A program made the position numbers and the translations under genes. A stretch of DNA of 61,736 bases, counting the filler, from Sandaracinaceae bacterium (GTDB lineage Bacteria; Myxococcota_A; Polyangia; Polyangiales; JADJQN01), in assembly GCA_947483975.1 (NCBI GenBank). It is 3 parts of 3 records of this genome, joined end to end, with 100 filler letters (N's around TTAATTAATTAA, not from the genome) between each part and the next. Parts side by side here need not be neighbours in the genome. Positions count along the whole stretch, not along the records: positions 1 to 20,923 come from CANKOL010000050.1; 2 more parts are not named here. One strand, 5' to 3'. This document shows, piece by piece, positions 1,981 through 41,724 of this stretch. The number at the start of each line of letters is the position of its first letter. Within the stretch, counting starts at the first letter, position 1. The notes beneath the pieces were generated by a model, which worked only from the letters and a program-made list of their open reading frames with translations, was not told the origin of the DNA and ran no database searches.

Positions 1981-2820
1981 ATGAGCGACTTCAAGCGGTT
2001 TCACGGCACGGACAGCTACCTGACCAGCGAGGCGCTCGAGTCCGCCGTCAACTGCGCGCTCGTCCTCGAGCGACCGCTGCTCGTCAAAGGCGAGCCCGGC
2101 ACGGGCAAGACGCTGCTCGCAGAGGCCATCGCCAAGGCGCTCGGCGCGCCATTGCTGCGCTGGCACGTGAAGTCGACGACGCGCGCGCAGGACGGACTCT
2201 ACGTCTACGACACCGTGCAGCGCCTCTACGACTCGCGCTTCAACGACGGCGACGTGAAGGATATCCGCCGCTACATCAAGCTCGGACCGCTCGGCGAGGC
2301 CATGGCCAGCCCGGAGCGCGTCGTGCTCTTGATCGACGAGGTCGACAAGGCCGACATCGAATTCCCGAACGATCTGCTGCACGAGCTGGATCGGATGCGC
2401 TTCATCATCGGCGAGACGGGCGACGAGATCGTCGCCAAGCAGCGCCCCGTCGTCATCATCACCAGCAACAACGAGAAGGAACTCCCCGACGCCTTCCTGC
2501 GGCGCTGCGTGTTTCACTTCATCGACTTCCCCGAGCCGGATCTGATGAAGCGCATCGTCGCGGTGCATCACCCGAAGCTCGACGAGGAGCTCGTCGATCA
2601 GTCCCTGACCGCGTTCTACGAGCTTCGCGAGATGAAGCGCCTTCGCAAGCGCCCGAGCACGAGCGAGCTGATCGACTGGATCGCGGTGCTGAAGGCGGCC
2701 GGCCTCAAGACCGTGAAGCTCGACAGCAATGTGCCGTTCCTCGGCGCCCTGCTGAAGAAGGAGCAGGACCTCGCTTCCCTCGCCGACCAGCTGTCGGGTG
2801 GGCGAAAGTACCGGAGCTGA
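1981..2820 (+). CDS. MoxR-family AAA+ ATPase (CoxD-like)
   Basis: Walker A GEPGTGKT, Walker B LLIDEVDKAD, FPNDLL, ITSNNEKELPDAFLRRC. SD-like AAGGA upstream. Confidence 0.92.
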   Translation: MSDFKRFHGTDSYLTSEALESAVNCALVLERPLLVKGEPGTGKTLLAEAIAKALGAPLLRWHVKSTTRAQDGLYVYDTVQRLYDSRFNDGDVKDIRRYIKLGPLGEAMASPERVVLLIDEVDKADIEFPNDLLHELDRMRFIIGETGDEIVAKQRPVVIITSNNEKELPDAFLRRCVFHFIDFPEPDLMKRIVAVHHPKLDEELVDQSLTAFYELREMKRLRKRPSTSELIDWIAVLKAAGLKTVKLDSNVPFLGALLKKEQDLASLADQLSGGRKYRS

Positions 2821-2825
2821 CCCCG

Positions 2826-3767
2826 ATGAACCGCACTTCCCTTCGCTCTTCATCGTTCGCGCTCGCTTGTCTCGCGCTCGCCGGGCTCTCGCAGGCCTGC
2901 GCCGCGGGCGAACCGTCGGTCCCGATGCGCTACGACGCGCACGTGCCGCCCTCGCCGGACGGCGGCTCGCGCGACCTCGGCGGCTCGGACCTCGGCGCGA
3001 CCGATCTCGGCAGCGCAGACCTCGGCGCGACCGATCTCGGCAGCGCAGACCTCGGCGCGAACGACCTCGGCAGCGCAGACCTCGGCAGCGCAGACCTCGG
3101 CAGCGCAGACCTCGGCAGCGCAGACCTCGGCCCGACGAGCGATGCGGGCCCGCTCGCCGGCTATCGGCACACGATCACCATCGACGGCGTCAACGACTTC
3201 GACGCGGCGCCCGAGCGCTTCGACACGACGACCGCAGGATATTCGCTCTACGTCAGCTGGGACGCGGACGCGCTCTACCTCGGCGCGAACGGTCCGGACA
3301 TCGCGTCGGGCGGCGCGACGAAGTGGCTGCTCTTCTACCTCGACACCAACGGTGCGGGCGCCGGGTCGAGCGTCGGCGTGACGTACAACACGCAGACTCC
3401 GGCGCTCCCGGCGGGCTTTTCGGCCGACTTCGTGTTCCGCTGGCGGGCGGACAACACCTTCCAGAGCCTGCAGCGCTGGGACGTCACGACGTCGACGTGG
3501 GTCGAGACGACCGTCGCGCCGACGACGTTCCAAGCGGGCACGTTCGTCGAGACGCGCCTCCCGCTGATCGAGCTCGGCGCACCGACGACCATCGGCATCG
3601 CCGCGCTCATGCTCAACGAAGCCGCGGGCGTCGAGTTCTCCTACTCGGGAATGCCGAGCGGGACGTTCGCGGACGGCTACCACGCGACCATTCCGATGAC
3701 GCGCTGGCTGTCGGCGAACCGAAGCCTCACCGCCAATCCGAACGACGCGAGTCGCCTGCGGCCCTGA
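2826..3767 (+). CDS. Secreted lipoprotein with DLGxx repeat linker and C-terminal DOMON/CBM9-like beta-sandwich
   Basis: ATG 5 nt after the MoxR stop. Signal ends in LSQAC, followed by 11 DLG pentapeptide units and then ITIDGVNDF...LYVSWDADALYLG, reminiscent of DOMON-like sugar-binding domains. Confidence 0.7.
   Translation: MNRTSLRSSSFALACLALAGLSQACAAGEPSVPMRYDAHVPPSPDGGSRDLGGSDLGATDLGSADLGATDLGSADLGANDLGSADLGSADLGSADLGSADLGPTSDAGPLAGYRHTITIDGVNDFDAAPERFDTTTAGYSLYVSWDADALYLGANGPDIASGGATKWLLFYLDTNGAGAGSSVGVTYNTQTPALPAGFSADFVFRWRADNTFQSLQRWDVTTSTWVETTVAPTTFQAGTFVETRLPLIELGAPTTIGIAALMLNEAAGVEFSYSGMPSGTFADGYHATIPMTRWLSANRSLTANPNDASRLRP
2973..3131 (+). repeat. 15-bp coding tandem repeat (DLGSA/DLGAT), about 10.6 copies
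   Basis: gacctcggcagcgca-type units read directly. Confidence 0.92.
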
Positions 3768-3775
3768 GGGCGCGC

Positions 3776-3860: not shown

Positions 3861-4637
3861 GTGGACCGACGCTCGGATTCGCTGCTGCCAGACCTGAGGT
3901 CGCGCGTGTTGCGGTTCGGGGTCGAGTGGGGAGAGGCGACGGGAAGGCCGCTCGCGACCGCGCGCGATGGGCTCGACTTCCTGACGGCGATGAAGTCGCG
4001 CGACGACTTCTGGGACGCCCTCGCCGCGGACGGTCCGGGCGGCACACCGCTGCTCGACACGGCGGCTTTGCGCGAGGCGCTACCTGCCGACGCGCCTCCG
4101 CAGGAGACCGCGTCGGAGGATGTGCTGCGCTCCCTCGGCCTCGCGGAGGGCGAGGTCATCGCGGTGCTGACGGGCCTCGACGAACCACCCGGACTCGATG
4201 ACGCGATCCGCGCAGCGTTCGCCGAGAGCACCCCGCAGAAGGTCGCGCGCGCCCTCGAGCGCGTCCTCGACACCGACCGGAATGTCCTCGCGACCGAGCA
4301 ATACGTGCGCCGCCTGCCAGAGTCCGCGGGGGTCGGGCGCTCGCTCGGCGTGCTGATGGGCACCGCCGTCCTGCTCGTCGGCACCACGCTCGGCGCCTGC
4401 GTCGCGCGCTGCGGGGCCCCGCAGAGCGCGCCGACGCCGCGCACCTCGCAGCAGACGCCGACGACGCCGGAGACCGCTCCGAACCCGGGAGCAGGAGCAC
4501 AGTCGACGCCTGAGCCGACGCCCCCCGAGCCGGCTCCTCCAGAGCCCACGCCGCCCCCACGTCCCTATCCGCCGCCGGGCCCCGCGCCCGCCTACAAGGG
4601 CGTGAGCCCGCGTCGCCGAGGAGCGCTCCACCCATGA
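3861..4637 (+). CDS. Putative radical SAM substrate/precursor protein 1 (YKG-motif lipoprotein-like)
   Basis: Strong RBS. Paralogous to 4634..5428 over the N-terminal ~175 aa. Hydrophobic segment ends TLGAC, then a Pro/Thr-rich linker and C-terminal PAPAYKGVSPRRR. Confidence 0.75.
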   Translation: MDRRSDSLLPDLRSRVLRFGVEWGEATGRPLATARDGLDFLTAMKSRDDFWDALAADGPGGTPLLDTAALREALPADAPPQETASEDVLRSLGLAEGEVIAVLTGLDEPPGLDDAIRAAFAESTPQKVARALERVLDTDRNVLATEQYVRRLPESAGVGRSLGVLMGTAVLLVGTTLGACVARCGAPQSAPTPRTSQQTPTTPETAPNPGAGAQSTPEPTPPEPAPPEPTPPPRPYPPPGPAPAYKGVSPRRRGALHP

Positions 4638-5428
4638 ACACGTTCTCCGCTGTTCAGCTCGAACGCCTGAAAGTCCACGTTCTCCCGTTCGGTGCAGAGT
4701 GGACGAGCACGACGCGGCGACCGCTCGCCACCGTGCGCGACGGGCTCGACTTCCTCGCGTCGATGAGGGCGCGCGGAGACTTCTGGGCGGGCCTCGCGCC
4801 GACGAGCCCGGAGGACACCTATCCGCTCGATCTCGCGGCCCTGCGCGAGCTACTGCCGAGCGCGCCGCTCACCTCGGACGTCGCTGCAGAGGATTTCCTG
4901 CGCGCGCTGGGGCTCTCCGACAGCGAACTCAGCGAGCTCGTCACGGGCCTCGACGAGCCCAATTTCTTCGACCTCGCGATCCAAGCGGCCTTCGCGGAGA
5001 CGCGCCCGCAGAGCGTCGCGCGGGCGCTCGAGCGCATCCTGCAGACGAACGCGGACGTGCTCGCGACGCAGTGCTACGTCGGCCGCGTCGCGACCTCGCG
5101 CGGCCTGGTCCGCACCGTCGGCGCGATGATGGGAGTCGCCCTCTTGCTCGTCGGCACCGCGTGCCCTCCGCAGAGCAGCCAGCCGACGCCGCAGCCCACG
5201 CCAGGCCAGGGCTCGGCGACCTCGGGTGCATCCTCGACGCCGACGCCGACCCCACAGCCGCCGCCCGACCCCGCGTCCGGCGCGACGACGCTCACTCCCG
5301 TCGCGCCCACGCCGCCGACGCCCGCGCCTGCGAACCCGCCGGCGCAGCGACCGCACCCGCCCCCGAGTCCCGCCCCCCGCTACAAGGGCGTGAGCCCGCG
5401 ACGGCGGACCGCCGCGACGCCCACCTGA
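4634..5428 (+). CDS. Putative radical SAM substrate/precursor protein 2 (YKG-motif lipoprotein-like)
   Basis: ATGA overlap with the previous gene. Shares RPLATxRDGLDFL, DFW, TGLDEP and VARALER blocks. VGTAC, Pro-rich linker, C-terminal PAPRYKGVSPRRR. Confidence 0.75.
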   Translation: MNTFSAVQLERLKVHVLPFGAEWTSTTRRPLATVRDGLDFLASMRARGDFWAGLAPTSPEDTYPLDLAALRELLPSAPLTSDVAAEDFLRALGLSDSELSELVTGLDEPNFFDLAIQAAFAETRPQSVARALERILQTNADVLATQCYVGRVATSRGLVRTVGAMMGVALLLVGTACPPQSSQPTPQPTPGQGSATSGASSTPTPTPQPPPDPASGATTLTPVAPTPPTPAPANPPAQRPHPPPSPAPRYKGVSPRRRTAATPT

Positions 5429-5439
5429 GCGCGTCAGCG

Positions 5440-6627
5440 ATGGAACGACCTCCGCGCATGACGGCGTGCTCTCCAGGCCAGACGTCGTTCACCCGCCCGC
5501 TCGCACTGCGACACGTCGACCGCGCGCCGGAGCACTTCGTCTGGGAGCTGACGAACGCCTGCAACTTGAACTGCGTGCATTGCGAGAGCGAGTCTGGGCC
5601 TGCGCGCGAGTCGGAACTCTCGACGGAGGAGGCGCTCGCGCTCTGCGATGACCTCCTCGCGCTCGGCTGCAAGGTCGTCAATCTCTCGGGCGGTGAGCCA
5701 TTCCTGCGCCCGGATTGGCTGCAGATCTGCGAGCGCTTGGTCGCCCTCGGGCTCGAACCGATACTCGTGTCGAACCTCACCATCGCCAACGCGGAGCACT
5801 TCGACGCGCTCGCGCGCCTCGGCGTCGAGTGGATCGCGACGTCCGTCGATGGCCCGCCGGAGGTCCACGACCGAATTCGCCGCACCCGAGGTGAGCCGTT
5901 TTCGCCCTTCGCCCGCACGCACGCGACGATCCTCGACCTCAAGGCGCGCGGCTTCAGCGTCGCGGTCATCACGCACATCAACCTGTGGAACCTGCCGCAC
6001 CTCGACGAACTCGCGGATATCCTCGAGCGTCTCGGCGTCGATCTCTGGCAGTTGCAGATCGGGCAACCTTCGGGGCGACTCCGCGAGATCGCCGAGAGCT
6101 ACCTCATCTATCCCGGGCAAATGGAGGACATCTACGCCTTCATCCGGCGCACCCAGCAGACTCGCAAGCTGACACTCGACGTCTCGGACGATATCGGCTT
6201 CTTCGGCCCGGACGAGCTCGCCATACGCACTTTGCACGGTGAGGCGCGGTTCTTCGCCGGATGTCAGGCGGGCTTCCGCGCGCTCGCGATCACGAGCGAC
6301 GGAATGGTTCGCGGCTGCCCTTCCCTCGAGATCGACGTGGGCAGTGTGCGCGAGACCCCGATCGCCGATATCTGGGCCGACGAGAAGCGCTTCTGGTTCA
6401 ACCACTGGGACCCCACCAAGGTCGAGGGGAACTGCCGTCGCTGCTCGTTTCAGCGCCTCTGCCGGTGCGGCTGCAAGAGCCTCGCGCTGTCCACCACGGG
6501 CTCCCTTCACCGCAACATCTACTGTATCAATCAGCTCCAGAACCTCGACGGCGACCCAGACACGCGTGAGGTCGAGGGCGTGCCACTCTCCGCGCGAAAG
6601 CGCTCTTTGCCCCAAGTGACGGAGTAG
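5440..6627 (+). CDS. Radical SAM/SPASM peptide-modifying enzyme 1 (PlpX/splicease-like clade)
   Basis: VWELTNACNLNCVHC, SGGEP, SVDG, LWQLQI, DDIGFFGPDE. SPASM cysteines GCQAG..GCPS..CRRC..LCRCGC..YC. Start is ATG 5440, alternatively 5458. Confidence 0.88.
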   Translation: MERPPRMTACSPGQTSFTRPLALRHVDRAPEHFVWELTNACNLNCVHCESESGPARESELSTEEALALCDDLLALGCKVVNLSGGEPFLRPDWLQICERLVALGLEPILVSNLTIANAEHFDALARLGVEWIATSVDGPPEVHDRIRRTRGEPFSPFARTHATILDLKARGFSVAVITHINLWNLPHLDELADILERLGVDLWQLQIGQPSGRLREIAESYLIYPGQMEDIYAFIRRTQQTRKLTLDVSDDIGFFGPDELAIRTLHGEARFFAGCQAGFRALAITSDGMVRGCPSLEIDVGSVRETPIADIWADEKRFWFNHWDPTKVEGNCRRCSFQRLCRCGCKSLALSTTGSLHRNIYCINQLQNLDGDPDTREVEGVPLSARKRSLPQVTE

Positions 6628-6635
6628 CGACACCC

Positions 6636-7766
6636 ATGCATCCGCCCCCAACTCCCGAGTTCAGCCCAGAGTTCTGCGTGTGGGAGACGACCCTCGCCTG
6701 CAATCTATCCTGCCGACACTGCGGCTCCTCCGCCGGCAAGGCCCGCGCGAACGAGCTCGACACGGAGGAGGCGCTCGCGCTGATCGACGCGCTCGCGAAC
6801 CTCGGGACGCGCGAGATCACGTTCAGCGGAGGCGAATTCATCGTGCGCCCAGACTGGCGGCTCTTGCTCGCGCGAGCAAAGTCGCGCGGCGTCGCGAGCC
6901 TCCTCGTCTCGAACGGGCTCGCGCTCACGCGCGAGGTCGCCGACGAGCTCGCGCGGCAGGATGTCGGCAGCGTCTCGCTGAGCGTCGACGGGAGTCCCCC
7001 CGCACATGACCGGCTACGCCCCCTCCACAAGCTGCACGCGCTCGAGTTCTCCGGCCCGTGTGGCGCCGAAGGGCCTTCGAGCCACGAGCAGTTGAGGCAC
7101 GCGGCCGAGAACTTGCGCGCTGCGGGCGTGACGGTCTCCGCGATCACGCAGGTATCGAAGAACAACCTCGCCGAGCTCCCCGCGATCGAAGAGTTCCTCG
7201 TCGCCTCCGGCATCGACGGTTGGCAGATCCAGATGACGAACGCGATGGGGCGCGGCGCCCGCGGCGCCGGCGAACACGCCATTCAGATCCTCGAGCCAGC
7301 GGATCTGCCGACGCTCTACGCCCATGTGCGAAGGGTGCAGCGCGAGGGTCGAGTCCGCTGCCTCGCCGCGGATTGTCTGGGCTATTTTGCGCCCGACGAG
7401 CCTCTCCTGCGCAGCGTCGAGCGGCCGGGCGACAACTTCTGGCAGGGCTGCCAAGCGGGGATGCGCGTACTCGGCATCACGAGCGATGGTGGCATCAAGG
7501 GCTGTCTCTCGATGACGGACACCTTCCTCGAGGGCAACCTCCGCGAGCGCCCGCTCCACGAGATCTGGAATGACCGGAGCGCGTTCGCCTACAACCGTCG
7601 CTTCGACGAGGCGACCCTGACGGGCGGGTGCAGCGGTTGCGCGTTCGGCAAGCTCTGCCGCGCGGGCTGCCGCAGCTTCGCGGCGACGGCGCAAGACGGC
7701 GACATCTCGCGCTACGACCACTGCATTCGCCTGCAGGACGCGGCGACGACGTCCTCGCCGCAGTGA
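6636..7766 (+). CDS. Radical SAM/SPASM peptide-modifying enzyme 2 (PlpX/splicease-like clade)
   Basis: VWETTLACNLSCRHCGSSAG, SGGE, WQIQMTNAMGR, GYFAPDEPLLR, FWQGCQAG..LGITSDGGIKGCLS..GNLRERPL..CSGC..LCRAGC..HC. Confidence 0.9.
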   Translation: MHPPPTPEFSPEFCVWETTLACNLSCRHCGSSAGKARANELDTEEALALIDALANLGTREITFSGGEFIVRPDWRLLLARAKSRGVASLLVSNGLALTREVADELARQDVGSVSLSVDGSPPAHDRLRPLHKLHALEFSGPCGAEGPSSHEQLRHAAENLRAAGVTVSAITQVSKNNLAELPAIEEFLVASGIDGWQIQMTNAMGRGARGAGEHAIQILEPADLPTLYAHVRRVQREGRVRCLAADCLGYFAPDEPLLRSVERPGDNFWQGCQAGMRVLGITSDGGIKGCLSMTDTFLEGNLRERPLHEIWNDRSAFAYNRRFDEATLTGGCSGCAFGKLCRAGCRSFAATAQDGDISRYDHCIRLQDAATTSSPQ

Positions 7767-9019
7767 GGGTCCTCTTCCTCGTCGCCGACTCGCTCCGCGC
7801 GGACGCGCTCGGCTGCTACGGCTCCGACCTCCGCACGCCGACGGTCGATCAACTCGCCTCGGGCGGCGCGCGCTTCGAGACGGTCATCTCCTCGGCGCCG
7901 TGGACGCTGCCGTCCCTCGGCGCGATGCTGACGGGAGTCTGGTCCCATCGACTCGGGCTGATGAAGTGGGAGCAGCCCTGGCCGCGCGGAGTCCCGACGC
8001 TCTTCGACGCGTTTCGGCGCAAGGGAATCGAGACGGCGTCCTTCGTCTTCGAGCCAGACCATCTCTTCAGCGCGTGTCCGGAGGCCAGCGTCGCGGGCTC
8101 TTCGCAGGACACCGACGCGATGCTGGCGTGGTTTCGCGCGCGCCGACACGGCGACTACTTCGCCTTCGTCCACTACTGGTGGACTCATGTGCCTTATGTC
8201 CGGCGGAGGCTCGCGCTCGCGACCTGGAACCAGGTGTGCCGGCAGCTTCTCGCGCTTCTGTCGGCCCCCGATCCAGCGACGCGCCTCGCCAATCGCCTGC
8301 AAATTCAGGGGCTCTACGCGGTCGCCGTGCAGGAGTTCAGCGAGGTCTGGCTGCCTCCGCTCCTCGAAGCTGCGCGCGCCGACACCGTCGTGCTCGTCTC
8401 GGATCATGGGGAGTCTTGGGGAGAGCGCCTGTCGGCGACTGACACTCTCGACGATGTGTTCGACTTGCACGGCAATCACCTCCACGAGGAGGTGCTCCGA
8501 GTCCCGTGGATCCTGCATTCGCCGGGGCTCGTGCCCGCCGTGACCGTCAGCGGCTTGGCCCGGTCCGTCGACGTGCTGCCGACGCTGCTCGAGGTGCTCG
8601 CCCTCGACCATCCCTCGCTGCGCGCGCCCTCAGGGGCGTCTCACGCGCGCTCCGGACGCTCGCTCGCCGCCGCGCTCGGCACGGGGCAACTCGCTGGCGA
8701 ACACGTCGCGTTCTCGTCGCGCAACCACGACTTCCTCGACGCGCCGGCGTTGCCGAGCGAACCCAGCAGCGTGTACGCCGAGTTCGCGTGTCGGAGCCTC
8801 TACCGCAAGGTCCTCATGGACGTGCGCGGCGCGCACGCGCGAGAGTACGATCTGCGCGCAGATCCTGCCGAAACGAGCTCCATCCGGCTGCCGGATGACA
8901 GCCCCTCGGCGCTCGCTGCGGCGCTACGCAGCGAGCTTCCCCACGCGGTCGTCTCCCCGCACCACGCCGAGGACTCTGCCCGGATGGGACAGCGCCTGAA
9001 GGACCTCGGCTACCTCTGA
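7763..9019 (+). CDS. Sulfatase-like hydrolase/transferase (alkaline phosphatase superfamily, Thr at nucleophile position)
   Basis: GTGA overlap with rSAM2. LVADSLRAD, APWTLPS..MLTG, HYWWTHVPY, SDHGE, HG..LHEEVLRVP, C-terminal RLKDLGY. No signal peptide. Confidence 0.85.
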   Translation: MRVLFLVADSLRADALGCYGSDLRTPTVDQLASGGARFETVISSAPWTLPSLGAMLTGVWSHRLGLMKWEQPWPRGVPTLFDAFRRKGIETASFVFEPDHLFSACPEASVAGSSQDTDAMLAWFRARRHGDYFAFVHYWWTHVPYVRRRLALATWNQVCRQLLALLSAPDPATRLANRLQIQGLYAVAVQEFSEVWLPPLLEAARADTVVLVSDHGESWGERLSATDTLDDVFDLHGNHLHEEVLRVPWILHSPGLVPAVTVSGLARSVDVLPTLLEVLALDHPSLRAPSGASHARSGRSLAAALGTGQLAGEHVAFSSRNHDFLDAPALPSEPSSVYAEFACRSLYRKVLMDVRGAHAREYDLRADPAETSSIRLPDDSPSALAAALRSELPHAVVSPHHAEDSARMGQRLKDLGYL

Positions 9020-9145: not shown

Positions 9146-10237
9146 ATGCCCGCCTCCGTCGACCTGCCGTCCCGCACCACGGTCATCGAACGCTTCAAAG
9201 GCCAGGGCGGACGCATCGCCGCGGTCCTGCCGATTCACTATCCGCGTGCGCTCTTTCGCGCGTTCGGGATGCTGCCGATCGAGGTCTGGGGCCCGCCCGG
9301 CGTCGACAAATCCACGGGCGACGCGCACCTGCAGGCGTACGCGTGCAGCACGGTGCGCGCGGGGCTCTCGTTCATCTTGAGCGGCGCCGGCGAGGTCGCC
9401 GACGCGATCCTCGTGCCGCACACCTGCGACTCACTGCAGGCGCTCGCGAGCGTGCTGCTCGACTTCACGAAGCCGCACCAGATGGTCCTCACGCTCTATG
9501 TTCCGAAGGCCGAGCGCGCGTCGGACCTCGAGTTTCTCGGCAAGGAGCTGCGGCGCGTGTTCGGACGGCTCGTCGAGCTGACGGGCCAGCGGCCGACCGA
9601 CGCGGAGCTGCACGCCGCGATGGACCGCGAGCAGCAGGCCGACGAGGTGCTCGCGCGACTCCTGAGCGAGCGCGGCAAGCTCGGCGTCGGCAACCGCGAG
9701 TTCTACGGGGTCGTGCGCAGTCGGGAGTACTTGCCGGCCGAGGAGTTCGCCTCGCTCGCGCGCGCCGCCCTCGACAAGTGGGCGGGAGCGCCGTTGCCGA
9801 AGCGCACGCCGATCCTCGCGACGGGAATCATGCCTGAGCCGATGGACGTGCTCGACGCCCTCGACGAGGCGGGCTTGTCCATCGTCGCGGACGACTTCGC
9901 GGGGAGCGGGCGGCGCCTCTACAAGGCGTCGACGGCGCGCGACCCGTTCGACCGAATGGCCAAGACGCTGCTCTCGGGCTCACCCGATCCGACGCGCGGC
10001 TGCGGCATACAGCCGCGCATCGATCACCTCGTCGACCTCGCGAAGCGCACGGGGGCGAGGGGGGCGCTCTTCTACGAGATCAAGTTCTGCGAGCCAGAGG
10101 CGTTCTACGTGCCGCTCGTCACGCGCGGGCTCCAAGCCGCGGGCGTTCCCTGCCTCGCGGTCGAGGTGGACATCACGGACCCGATGCCGGATCAGCTCGT
10201 CACCCGGATCGAAGCCTTCGCAGAGAGCCTCTCATGA
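9146..10237 (+). CDS. 2-hydroxyacyl-CoA dehydratase subunit (HgdB/FldC/BcrC family)
   Basis: HLQAYACS, PHTCDSLQ, IVADD, IKFCEPEAF, TRIEAFAE. Confidence 0.87.
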   Translation: MPASVDLPSRTTVIERFKGQGGRIAAVLPIHYPRALFRAFGMLPIEVWGPPGVDKSTGDAHLQAYACSTVRAGLSFILSGAGEVADAILVPHTCDSLQALASVLLDFTKPHQMVLTLYVPKAERASDLEFLGKELRRVFGRLVELTGQRPTDAELHAAMDREQQADEVLARLLSERGKLGVGNREFYGVVRSREYLPAEEFASLARAALDKWAGAPLPKRTPILATGIMPEPMDVLDALDEAGLSIVADDFAGSGRRLYKASTARDPFDRMAKTLLSGSPDPTRGCGIQPRIDHLVDLAKRTGARGALFYEIKFCEPEAFYVPLVTRGLQAAGVPCLAVEVDITDPMPDQLVTRIEAFAESLS

Positions 10238-11559
10238 GCATCCCCGGTCAGCTCGCCTATCAGCTCAACGTCAACGTCCTCGGCAAAGCCGCGCTCCGCG
10301 TTCAGCGCTGGCAGCTCGAGCGCAAGCTCTCGAAGCCCGGCACCTGGAAGCACGAGACGCTCAACGCGCCCATCGACACCGCCCCTTGGCTCAAGGAGCT
10401 GATCACCAAGCATTACCTGACTGGGCGCTACGCCAACGGCGCGCGCAAGGTCGCGTGGGTCACCTCGGGCGCGCCCGTCGAGTTCCTCAAGGCGCTCGAC
10501 TACTTCCTCATCTATCCCGAGAACCACGGGGCGGTGTGTGGGATTCGCAAGGTCGGCGAGGAGATGTGCACGCACGCCGAGGACTTCGGCTATTCGCGGG
10601 ATATCTGCTCGTACGCGCGGTGCGATATCGGCTCGGTGTTGTCGGGCAAGACGCCTGTCGGGCGCCTCCCGAAGCCGGACCTACTCCTCTGCTGCAACAA
10701 CATCTGTCAGACGGTCCTCTACTGGTATCAGGTGCTCGCGCATCACTTCGGCTGTCCGCTGATCGTCATCGACACTCCGTTCATCTACGACGAGGCGCGC
10801 GAGCACGACATCGCGTCGGTGAAGCGCCAGATCGAGGACGCGTTCCCCATCGCCGAGCGCGTCGCGGAGAGGACGATCGAGCCGAAGCGCCTCGAGGACG
10901 TGATGCTGCGCAGCCGCGACGCGGTGGACCTCTGGCTCAAGGTGCTGCAGACGGGGCGCAATCATCCCTCCCCGATCACCGCGTTCGACGAATTCATCCA
11001 CATGGCGCCCATCGTCGAGATGCGCGGAGAGTCCGCGACGGTCGACTACTACAGCGCGATGCTGAGCGCGCTCGAGCAGCGGGCGAAGGACGGCGTCGGC
11101 GCGCTGAAGCACGAGAAGAAGCGCATTCTCTGGGACAATTTGCCCATCTGGTACCGCATCCGGCCGCTCGGCGAGAAGCTCGCGGAGCATGGCGTCGCGA
11201 TGGTCGCGTCCACGTACACCAACGCTTGGGGCGAGCTCGCCGAGCTGATCAACGCGGACCATCCGATGGACTCGATGGCCAAGTGCTACCTCCATCCGAT
11301 CCTCAATCGGGGCACCGGGCACAAGCTCCAGACGATGCAGAAGATGCTCACCGAGTACGAGGCCGACGGGGTCATCTTGCACTCGGATCGCTCGTGCAAG
11401 CCGTACTCGATTGGGCAGATCGACCAGCGCAACGCGGTGTCGGACAAGCTCGGCAAACCCGCGCTGCTGCTCGAGGCCGATCACACCGACGGGCGCGCGT
11501 ATTCGGTCGAGCAGGCGGACACGCGCATCTCGGCGTTCCTCGAATTGCTCGGAGTCTGA
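10234..11559 (+). CDS. 2-hydroxyacyl-CoA dehydratase subunit (HgdA/FldB/BcrB family)
   Basis: ATGA overlap. YPENHGA, GYSRDICSYAR, PKPDLLLCCNNIC, DGVILHSDRSCK, EADHTD..TRISAFLE. Confidence 0.88.
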   Translation: MSIPGQLAYQLNVNVLGKAALRVQRWQLERKLSKPGTWKHETLNAPIDTAPWLKELITKHYLTGRYANGARKVAWVTSGAPVEFLKALDYFLIYPENHGAVCGIRKVGEEMCTHAEDFGYSRDICSYARCDIGSVLSGKTPVGRLPKPDLLLCCNNICQTVLYWYQVLAHHFGCPLIVIDTPFIYDEAREHDIASVKRQIEDAFPIAERVAERTIEPKRLEDVMLRSRDAVDLWLKVLQTGRNHPSPITAFDEFIHMAPIVEMRGESATVDYYSAMLSALEQRAKDGVGALKHEKKRILWDNLPIWYRIRPLGEKLAEHGVAMVASTYTNAWGELAELINADHPMDSMAKCYLHPILNRGTGHKLQTMQKMLTEYEADGVILHSDRSCKPYSIGQIDQRNAVSDKLGKPALLLEADHTDGRAYSVEQADTRISAFLELLGV

Positions 11560-12332
11560 TGATGGCGAACGTCGTCGCGCTGGGCTTCGACATCGGCTCT
11601 TCGACGGCCAAGCTCGTCGGCGTCACCGCGGACGGCAAGCTCGCGTTTCACCGCATCGAGCCGACGGAGCCGCGGATCGAGGATCAGGCGACGCGTATGC
11701 TCGCAGAGGCGCGGGCGGCGCTCGGCGGCGGCGCGCTCCCCGTCGTCGCGACGGGCTACGGGCGCAAGCTGATCCCAGGCGCCGACCGCGCGGTCACGGA
11801 GATCACCTGCCACGCGCGCGGCGTGTGGGAGGCGATGGGCACGCCGGGCACGCTCGTCGACGTCGGCGGGCAGGACAGCAAGGTCATCGTGGTCGGCGCC
11901 GAGGGTCGCGTCGCGAACTTCGCGATGAACGACAAGTGCGCCGCGGGCACCGGGCGCTTCCTCGAGGTGACGGCGGCGCGCCTGCGCATCCCGATCGACG
12001 AGATCGGCGCGGTGTCGCTCAGCACGAAGAAGAGCGTGCCCATCTCCAGCACCTGCACGGTCTTCGCGGAGTCAGAGATCATCTCGTTGCTCGCGCACGG
12101 CGAGCACGTCGAGAACATCCTGCACGGGCTGCATCGCTCGCTCGTCTCACGCCTCGTCGCGATGGTCCGCGGAGTGCAGCCGCGGGCGCCGTATATGCTG
12201 TCCGGCGGGGTGGCGCGAAACGGCGCGCTGCGGGCGTTCCTCGCGGAGAGCCTCGGCAGCGAGGTGCTCGTGCCCGCCGAGCCGCAATTGATGGGCGCGT
12301 ACGGCGCGGCGCTGCTGGTTCGCCACGGCTAG
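11559..12332 (+). CDS. ATP-dependent activase of 2-hydroxyacyl-CoA dehydratase (HgdC/BadFG family, ASKHA [4Fe-4S])
   Basis: TGATG coupling. DIGSSTAK, ATGYGR, EITCHARG, DVGGQDSK, MNDKCAAGTGRFLE, SSTCTVFAESE, GGVARN. Confidence 0.92.
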   Translation: MMANVVALGFDIGSSTAKLVGVTADGKLAFHRIEPTEPRIEDQATRMLAEARAALGGGALPVVATGYGRKLIPGADRAVTEITCHARGVWEAMGTPGTLVDVGGQDSKVIVVGAEGRVANFAMNDKCAAGTGRFLEVTAARLRIPIDEIGAVSLSTKKSVPISSTCTVFAESEIISLLAHGEHVENILHGLHRSLVSRLVAMVRGVQPRAPYMLSGGVARNGALRAFLAESLGSEVLVPAEPQLMGAYGAALLVRHG

Positions 12333-20923: not shown

Positions 20924-21023
20924 NNNNNNNNNNNNNNNNNNNNNNNNNNNNNNNNNNNNNNNNNNNNTTAATTAATTAANNNNNNNNNNNNNNNNNNNNN
21001 NNNNNNNNNNNNNNNNNNNNNNN
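20924..21023. other. Artificial contig spacer
   Basis: 44 N + TTAATTAATTAA (stops in all six frames) + 44 N. Confidence 0.97.
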
Positions 21024-41624: not shown

Positions 41625-41724
41625 NNNNNNNNNNNNNNNNNNNNNNNNNNNNNNNNNNNNNNNNNNNNTTAATTAATTAANNNNNNNNNNNNNNNNNNNN
41701 NNNNNNNNNNNNNNNNNNNNNNNN
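41625..41724. other. Artificial contig spacer
   Basis: 44 N + TTAATTAATTAA + 44 N. Confidence 0.97.

Follow-up and report, generated by a model that had tools for sequence, protein, structure and literature searches.

What is made at positions 3861-5428 of the DNA stretch analysed here (the window, 61,736 nt from a Sandaracinaceae bacterium), where two tandem genes, A1 and A2, lie directly ahead of two radical S-adenosylmethionine (rSAM) enzyme genes? The first-pass annotation had read A1 and A2 as precursors with a large N-terminal domain, an internal lipoprotein-type signal, a Pro stalk and a conserved tip, giving a cell-anchored modified protein instead of a diffusible ribosomally synthesised and post-translationally modified peptide (RiPP). 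Comparative analysis led to a reading that is held with slightly better than even confidence: A1 and A2 would be protein-sized substrates of a four-part cassette, a divergent branch of the splicease-type systems, and would be modified in the cytoplasm and then anchored in the envelope. Only positions 1-20923 of the window belong to the contig that carries the cassette (C50); N runs lie at 20924-21023 and 41625-41724, and the remainder is not genomic context. The cassette is composed of the following features.

3861..4637, + strand: precursor A1, 258 aa, GTG start, with GAGGAGG 4 nt upstream
3861..4337, + strand: A1 N-domain, predicted all-helical, D1 at about residues 1-80 and D2 at about 81-152
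4338..4400, + strand: A1 internal lipoprotein-type signal, residues 160-180; Arg160, 19 uncharged residues, LGAC (Cys180), and a second Cys at 184
4401..4592, + strand: A1 linker rich in Pro and Thr, 64 aa; relatives can do without it
4593..4610, + strand: A1 tip YKGVSP, candidate modification site; the basic tail behind it is clade-specific
4634..5428, + strand: precursor A2, 264 aa, its start overlapping the A1 stop (ATGA)
4634..5110, + strand: A2 N-domain (D1 and D2), from an AlphaFold2 model and conservation
5111..5164, + strand: A2 internal signal, residues 160-177; Arg160, 16 uncharged residues, GTAC (Cys177)
5165..5380, + strand: A2 Pro-rich linker, 72 aa
5381..5398, + strand: A2 tip YKGVSP, from conservation
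5440..6627, + strand: rSAM1, radical SAM and SPASM domains (PF04055, PF13186); start taken at the first ATG beyond the A2 stop (5440) and not fixed
6636..7766, + strand: rSAM2, radical SAM and SPASM domains (PF04055, PF13186), 36-37% identical to rSAM1
7763..9019, + strand: sulfatase-like gene (alkaline-phosphatase superfamily, PF00884), no signal peptide, its start overlapping the rSAM2 stop

A1 and A2 were 55% identical overall; they agreed at 85 of 160 positions in the N-domain and at 11 of 12 in the tip. Both open reading frames (ORFs) encoded a 159-aa helical N-domain, a segment of Arg, hydrophobic residues and Cys, a Pro-rich linker and a YKGVSP tip, and the layout that had been described was confirmed in both. 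Neither protein matched a Pfam or NCBIfam family over cut-off, and weak Pfam matches (RuvA_C, E 0.01; NNH2; MlaC; TetR_C_20) were set aside as noise from helical sequence. Three lake or freshwater runs (three studies) yielded contigs that spanned 30, 30, and 29 of 30 region bins; given this independent coverage, the A1/A2 DNA is no assembly artefact. In a table of strain differences that reports supported differences only, the one indel inside the two genes was a deletion of 6 nt, in frame, within the A2 linker of a related strain. One metatranscriptome gave three 151-nt contigs on the region, which is no evidence of transcription, and neither a sigma-70 promoter nor an intrinsic terminator was found at the locus.

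The order of the cassette was precursor(s), rSAM1, rSAM2, and sulfatase-like gene, tightly packed in the window. In all 10 other loci reaching past the precursor, rSAM1 followed it directly (L004, L005, L006, L008, L009, L012, and L048-L051, of which L004 and L005 are near-identical and L049 and L050 come from one genus; L007 ends too early), and the sulfatase-like gene followed rSAM2 in 7/7 other loci extending that far. Two rSAM genes were kept even with a single precursor (L012, L048-L051). Across 301 genomes from the phylum, the best four non-self matches of rSAM2 and the best four matches of the sulfatase-like protein came from the same four genomes, all with YKG precursors. The sulfatase-like enzyme was over cut-off for PF00884 and retained its motifs in all cassette copies read, with W-T-x-P-S in 12/12 copies. 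The sulfatase motif is C-x-P-x-R (C/S-x-P-x-R), and the cassette enzyme has Thr in that place; the formylglycine-sulfatase form was thus absent from all 12 copies. Two protein searches for window-type relatives of A1 and A2 gave 18 and 15 matches, and 35 distinct sequences were analysed. The window-type profile was found in one of 400 other genomes of the phylum, none of 400 genomes of the order, and two of 154 genomes in the order of G337 (G337 and G782), and the system is rare among the genomes searched. When a genome collection was scanned with one protein as query, the only match was weak and 32 residues long (L010); it had no cassette gene near it and was rejected.

The tips of A1 and A2 read YKGVSP and then RRR. 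Tyr, Lys, and Gly were invariant in 42/42 tip-bearing sequences, with V or I at +3, P or F at +5, Pro at -2 in 28/42, and a variable -1 position. These 42 were drawn from 51 strings, the others being a truncated construct, two fragments, one CKG variant, and five His-ended siblings. The stretch from Cys to Tyr measured 64 and 72 aa in A1 and A2 (38% Pro) and 0-86 aa over the window-type relatives; in P0010, P0011, and the compact L012 precursor (181 aa), LTAC was followed by YKG with no linker. Since the Pro content also ranged from 16 to 44% among 22 linkers of at least 30 aa, the linker is better described as a variable tether, and the rigid Pro stalk was given up as a defining part. The proposal that SPRRR serves as a general trimming site fell as well, because Arg followed the tip in only 15/42 sequences and 6/42 terminated there; the basic tail is specific to one clade.

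The AlphaFold2 model of A2 residues 1-186 was all-helical, with a predicted local distance difference test (pLDDT) score of 83.7, and W51, R71, A119, F120, A129, L132, and E133 (A2 numbering) were invariant in 32 sequences. Foldseek against the PDB gave nothing at E<=0.001, VIA-align gave no fold above noise (best Z 3.8, root-mean-square deviation (rmsd) 2.4, 58 aligned), and both ESM Atlas queries gave no usable feature match, with structural rows at TM-scores <0.4; together with the profile searches, they returned no known unrelated fold of the kind that would speak against a leader. Comparison with known leader and recognition families (Nif11, NHLP, PqqD/RRE) gave no profile over cut-off and no fold above noise, and the N-domain may yet belong to such a family. 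The N-domain was found only beside one rSAM branch, and the canonical YG enzymes carried zinc-ribbon or Nif11 leaders. That leader type tracks enzyme branch is the main evidence for docking, and it suggests that the N-domain acts as a leader that docks on or activates the enzymes, as first proposed. For comparison, splicease activation by a leader helix of RhaA and by PlpY is described in the available part of PMC11414181.

A second group of relatives had permuted precursors arranged as D1, signal, invariant GC, D2, and a tip of the form YKG[IV][SA]F. These lay beside tandem rSAM pairs (the best four non-self rSAM2 matches) and the same sulfatase-like gene, and the GC at the signal end was invariant in 15/15. 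Profile comparison of the permuted group with the window type gave 75% (E 2.6e-5), and hhalign by halves gave 36% for D1-D1 and 62% for D2-D2 (E 7.5e-5), with crossed controls at 2-4%, so that homology of D2 between the two groups is moderately supported. If D2 does occur on either side of the signal, the hydrophobic segment would be a separable targeting unit, and any docking by D2 would precede export. A fold search with the model of a permuted precursor (pLDDT 64) returned a designed helical protein only (best Z 6.9, rmsd 2.8, 63 aligned). Five further permuted proteins had no YKG and ended in an acidic tail and His (TGH, AGH, DDH).

L056:5374-6048: His-ended sibling
L056:7179-7808: His-ended sibling
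L074:1238-1990: His-ended sibling
P0070 and P0071: His-ended siblings, as proteins

The three with known context adjoined rSAM pairs of the same branch, with a sulfatase-like gene nearby, and a His-directed chemistry is possible in these cassettes.

PF04055 and PF13186 were over cut-off in both rSAM1 and rSAM2, and the rSAM and SPASM cysteines were retained in both. The best NCBIfam matches of rSAM1 were TIGR04103 (189 bits; cut-off 725) and TIGR03913 (180 bits; cut-off 592), and rSAM2 scored 230 and 203 bits against the same models and cut-offs. Phylogenetic trees were constructed in which annotated plasmid family members stood in for the characterised PlpX and RhaX. FastTree (73 sequences) placed rSAM1, rSAM2, and the pairs of the His-type systems in one monophyletic group (0.957), while IQ-TREE (36 of the 73 sequences, with distant outgroups) did not recover rSAM1 and rSAM2 as monophyletic and gave deep supports of 47-68; since the two trees disagree, this monophyly is not claimed.

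In the available part of PMC10533398, the context of the PlpA3 splice tag is P-x-Y-G-hydrophobic-P. The YKG tips mirror the P-x-Y context of this tag and of the YG precursors described below, which favours tyramine excision with Lys replacing Gly; that one of the enzymes excises tyramine at X-Tyr, as a splicease would, is tentatively put forward as the most likely single reaction. Only just short of an even chance is given to the same cassette and envelope fate with another radical chemistry, for example one that cross-links Tyr to Lys or through the backbone, cleaves a side chain, or takes out the Lys unit; this explanation concerns the chemistry step only and overlaps the reading given at the outset. 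It draws on the Lys that stands invariantly between Tyr and Gly (42/42), on the two enzymes kept even for one precursor, on the place of these enzymes outside the canonical clade and their lack of several stretches that the clade conserves (GGEAYL, PGNN, and a RERL extension at the C-terminus, among others), on the His-ended siblings, and on the constant presence of an extra, Thr-nucleophile sulfatase-like enzyme. However, the splicease models are still the best profile matches, the P-x-Y context agrees with splice sites, and the YG-type relative L052 has YA and YR, so that the +1 position can vary. A bolder version, which must be called doubtful, would make the rSAM pair a branch alongside the spliceases with unreported backbone chemistry at Tyr-Lys-Gly (at the C-terminal His in the siblings), finished by the Thr-nucleophile sulfatase-like enzyme, with delivery through a signal that follows a folded leader which delays export. 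On this version, the short forms would leave the Lgt/LspA route as ribosomal lipopeptides of about nine residues, with a lipidated Cys beside the modified Tyr.

The fate of the product depends on the segment behind the N-domain. Both A1 and A2 matched a loose signal pattern (R/K, 12-24 uncharged hydrophobic residues, and [GAS]C, with the -3 and -2 positions ignored). A crude filter left 3,016 ORFs of this genome, in which 80 of 11,120 internal Cys (0.72%) matched it; the figure can only overstate the background, since some of these matches are genuine N-terminal lipoproteins with ORFs that are too long. As the pattern is this rare (<=0.72% of internal Cys), the signal in A1 and A2 is not ascribed to chance. 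It was found in 28/35 window-type sequences (27 by script and P0011 by eye; 22/23 close and 6/12 distant) and in 15/15 permuted relatives, the rows of both groups being kin and not independent. The Kyte-Doolittle (KD) maxima of A1 and A2, in a 17-residue window, were 1.91 and 1.95, which is moderate and not strong; a hydrophobic segment (KD at least 1.58) was retained in 34/35 window-type sequences. The Cys at its end was absent in 5/35, of which one has an A-x-A-like site and another a long transmembrane (TM) helix. The genome contained two PF01252 (lspA) matches over cut-off and six lgt-like TIGR00544 matches (best E 4e-29), all below cut-off. The motif seen at first pass is therefore present, and it is commoner in the relatives than in the internal-Cys background; the retained segment points to membrane targeting as proposed. 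The proposed lipidation holds as a pattern in 28/35 sequences and not as a universal feature, since five have no Cys and only six of the 12 distant sequences fit. Of the grounds named in advance for giving up the idea, loss of the Cys was thus seen in part, and loss of the hydrophobic segment was not seen.

In an unlikely explanation of these data, the hydrophobic segment stays uncleaved and anchors the protein N-in/C-out in the inner membrane, with an optional, unlipidated Cys. The five sequences without Cys, the strong TM helix of P0012 (KD 3.2), the strict lipobox in just 9/35 sequences, and the Gly at -3 in A2 would suit it. Against this, a Cys with G, A or S at -1 ended the segment in 28/35 and 15/15 sequences, compared with <=0.72% in the background, and the same Cys placement was found in unrelated zinc-ribbon YG precursors. 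Distinctly improbable is the explanation that the hydrophobic helix merely closes a folded leader as its final helix and that a general protease frees a soluble or diffusible core. Its hydrophobicity is moderate (KD about 1.9), it was modelled together with the domain (pLDDT 64-84), and the short forms would yield a core of 7-9 residues only; in the permuted group, however, the helix shifts relative to D2, its model there is of low confidence (pLDDT 31-57), and a disordered stretch follows, no peptidase or exporter gene was conserved in the cassette flanks read by eye, and the versions without Cys remain hydrophobic. That A1 and A2 are accessory activators or membrane scaffolds, the true substrate being a small molecule or another protein, is very improbable: a large folded domain, His-ended relatives without YKG, and a sulfatase-like enzyme that might indicate a small-molecule pathway fit it, and set against them are the invariant, splice-site-like terminal motif on a variable linker, which has the look of a substrate, and the lack of any other candidate substrate conserved in the loci read.

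If A1 and A2 are indeed substrates that are modified and then anchored, four steps may be proposed. The helical N-domain would fold in the cytoplasm, bind or activate the rSAM pair, and delay export until modification. The enzymes would then target the invariant Tyr-Lys-Gly, a target shown by conservation, and the second enzyme and the sulfatase-like protein might work on the invariant Lys or on the product of the first enzyme. Next, the internal segment, with its moderate hydrophobicity, would enter the general Sec pathway; in proteins that have the Cys, Lgt would lipidate it and LspA would remove the N-domain, and in relatives without Cys the segment would serve as a membrane anchor or be cut by signal peptidase I. 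Finally, a tether of whatever length would hold out the modified tip in the envelope, where it might trap proteases as an electrophile, by analogy to tested spliceotides in the available parts of PMC9811515 and PMC10849128.

Several points weigh against this scheme. The YKG enzymes scored 189-275 bits with TIGR04103, compared with 515 for the YG-type myxobacterial enzyme, and the canonical splicease clade (Nif11-, GDL-, and zinc-ribbon-type) excluded rSAM1 and rSAM2 in both trees (support 1.0 and 100). The two thus appear to be divergent enzymes outside that clade, and the cassette, which would function much as a two-component splicease system whose substrate is exported, is not to be filed as a spliceotide system. 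In the spliceotide literature searched, the splice site is always XYG, which YKG does not fit. The His-ended siblings share the leader without YKG, so the enzyme branch is not tied to Tyr. As for export, A1 and A2 resemble lipoproteins but miss the N-terminal signal position and the strict lipobox: the signal starts at residue 160, preceded by a conserved open domain, with no alternative start evident ahead of Arg160, and neither LGAC nor GTAC fits the strict lipobox ([LVI][ASTVI][GAS]C), which was found in 9/35 window-type and 1/15 permuted sequences. Co-translational insertion would export the tip ahead of enzyme access. Since D2 lies after the Cys in the permuted group, the cytoplasmic place of the N-domain is not fixed, with the D2 homology moderately supported.

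A Tyr-Lys-Gly system with two enzymes would widen the sites for protein labelling and ketoamide installation, or would represent a new radical reaction. It would also be a model for a protein that is modified by cytoplasmic iron-sulphur enzymes and then exported and anchored. Native spliceotide products are described as still unknown in the available part of a review (PMC9811515), and a membrane-anchored product would escape detection in extracts.

Other genes around these loci were also recorded. Directly upstream of A1 (window 2816-3767, +) lies a probable lipoprotein gene with pentapeptide-like repeats at nt ~2990-3130, which was not found at the other cassette loci tested. Downstream (window 9146-12332, +) are genes for the alpha and beta subunits of a 2-hydroxyacyl-CoA dehydratase and its activator, with no tblastn match at any other cassette locus tested. 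A sulfation pathway was set aside, with hints in only two of seven long loci (L006 and L048). L006 has a sulfotransferase gene (L006:7298-8002, -; PF13469) and, after the cassette, a third precursor gene (L006:8001-8798, +); cysD/cysN-like genes, read by eye, lie divergent from the cassette at L048:4553-6624 (+). Related rSAM pairs occur at L057:3689-7403 and L054:4377-6571, one with a sulfatase-like gene in between, and no precursor was detected at either with either profile. Splicease-related rSAMs at L025, L032, L033, L034, L042, L045, L046, and L060 formed a well-supported clade with long frames (560-765 aa) and no small precursor nearby, and are possibly enzyme-substrate fusions.

The closest likeness in layout was found within the same phylum, where zinc-ribbon YG precursors lie beside canonical splicease-like enzymes (L035, L036, L037, L044, L058, L059, and contig C131). 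Like A1 and A2, they consist of a leader, Arg with a hydrophobic stretch, Cys, a low-complexity linker (including zero length), and a Tyr motif; three of the seven have Cys directly ahead of YG. Unlike A1 and A2, they have a knob leader of about 45 aa (CxxC..CPFC) and a YG site that is often repeated, and they are served by a single canonical enzyme (515 bits on TIGR04103). No named family was found for them, and many other loci screened had no such precursor within the short flanks examined. On contig C131 of the present genome, the precursor (~3480-3770, +) has its Cys directly before YG and a divergent canonical splicease-like rSAM gene at 2170-3396 (-). Contig C451 encodes a second canonical splicease-like enzyme, with no precursor seen up to the contig end, and a lipoprotein-type precursor at L052:1410-1799, with a splicease-like neighbour, carries YA and YR at the places of YG in its relative L028. 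The order of parts that had been called unusual is therefore one that YG-type splicease loci commonly share, across the phylum as well as in this genome, and the architecture by itself is less surprising.

Like the cassette, the TIGR04133/TIGR04134 system (rSAM_w_lipo) pairs an rSAM/SPASM enzyme with a lipoprotein. The cassette enzymes scored 121 and 146 bits (cut-off 425), and the precursors matched no NCBIfam model. The main splicease survey is said to comprise 27 splicease-substrate pairs. That survey (Scott et al. 2022, Chem 8:2659) was not covered by the literature searched, in which no YKG, lysine- or arginine-excision, or lipoprotein-splicease description was found, and it might include one.

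The comparison with spliceotide systems drew on the available parts of PMC11414181, PMC11626197, PMC11002830, PMC9811515, PMC10849128, and PMC10533398. Like PlpX/PlpY/PlpA (type I, TIGR04103/IPR026482), RhaX/RhaA, RcsX, and RasX, the cassette combines rSAM and SPASM domains, an adjacent precursor with a leader, and a P-x-Y Tyr motif, and like the two-component RhaX/RhaA, RcsX, and RasX it showed no separate Y/RRE gene. It differs in having Y-K-G and not X-Y-G (YG is absent from A1 and A2, and the XYG definition of a spliceotide does not apply), two enzymes with sub-cut-off scores outside the canonical clade, a 159-aa leader of no known family, an internal signal, and a linked sulfatase-like gene. 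Bufferins, in the available part of PMC11626156, are also large RiPP precursors whose cytoplasmic modification precedes export through Sec, with no transporter of their own; unlike A1 and A2, they have an N-terminal signal, MNIO enzymes, Cys chemistry, and a soluble periplasmic product. By sequence comparison, then, the cassette appears to be set apart by its invariant Tyr-Lys-Gly, its two non-canonical enzymes, its new leader domain, and an always-linked sulfatase-like enzyme with a putative Thr nucleophile.

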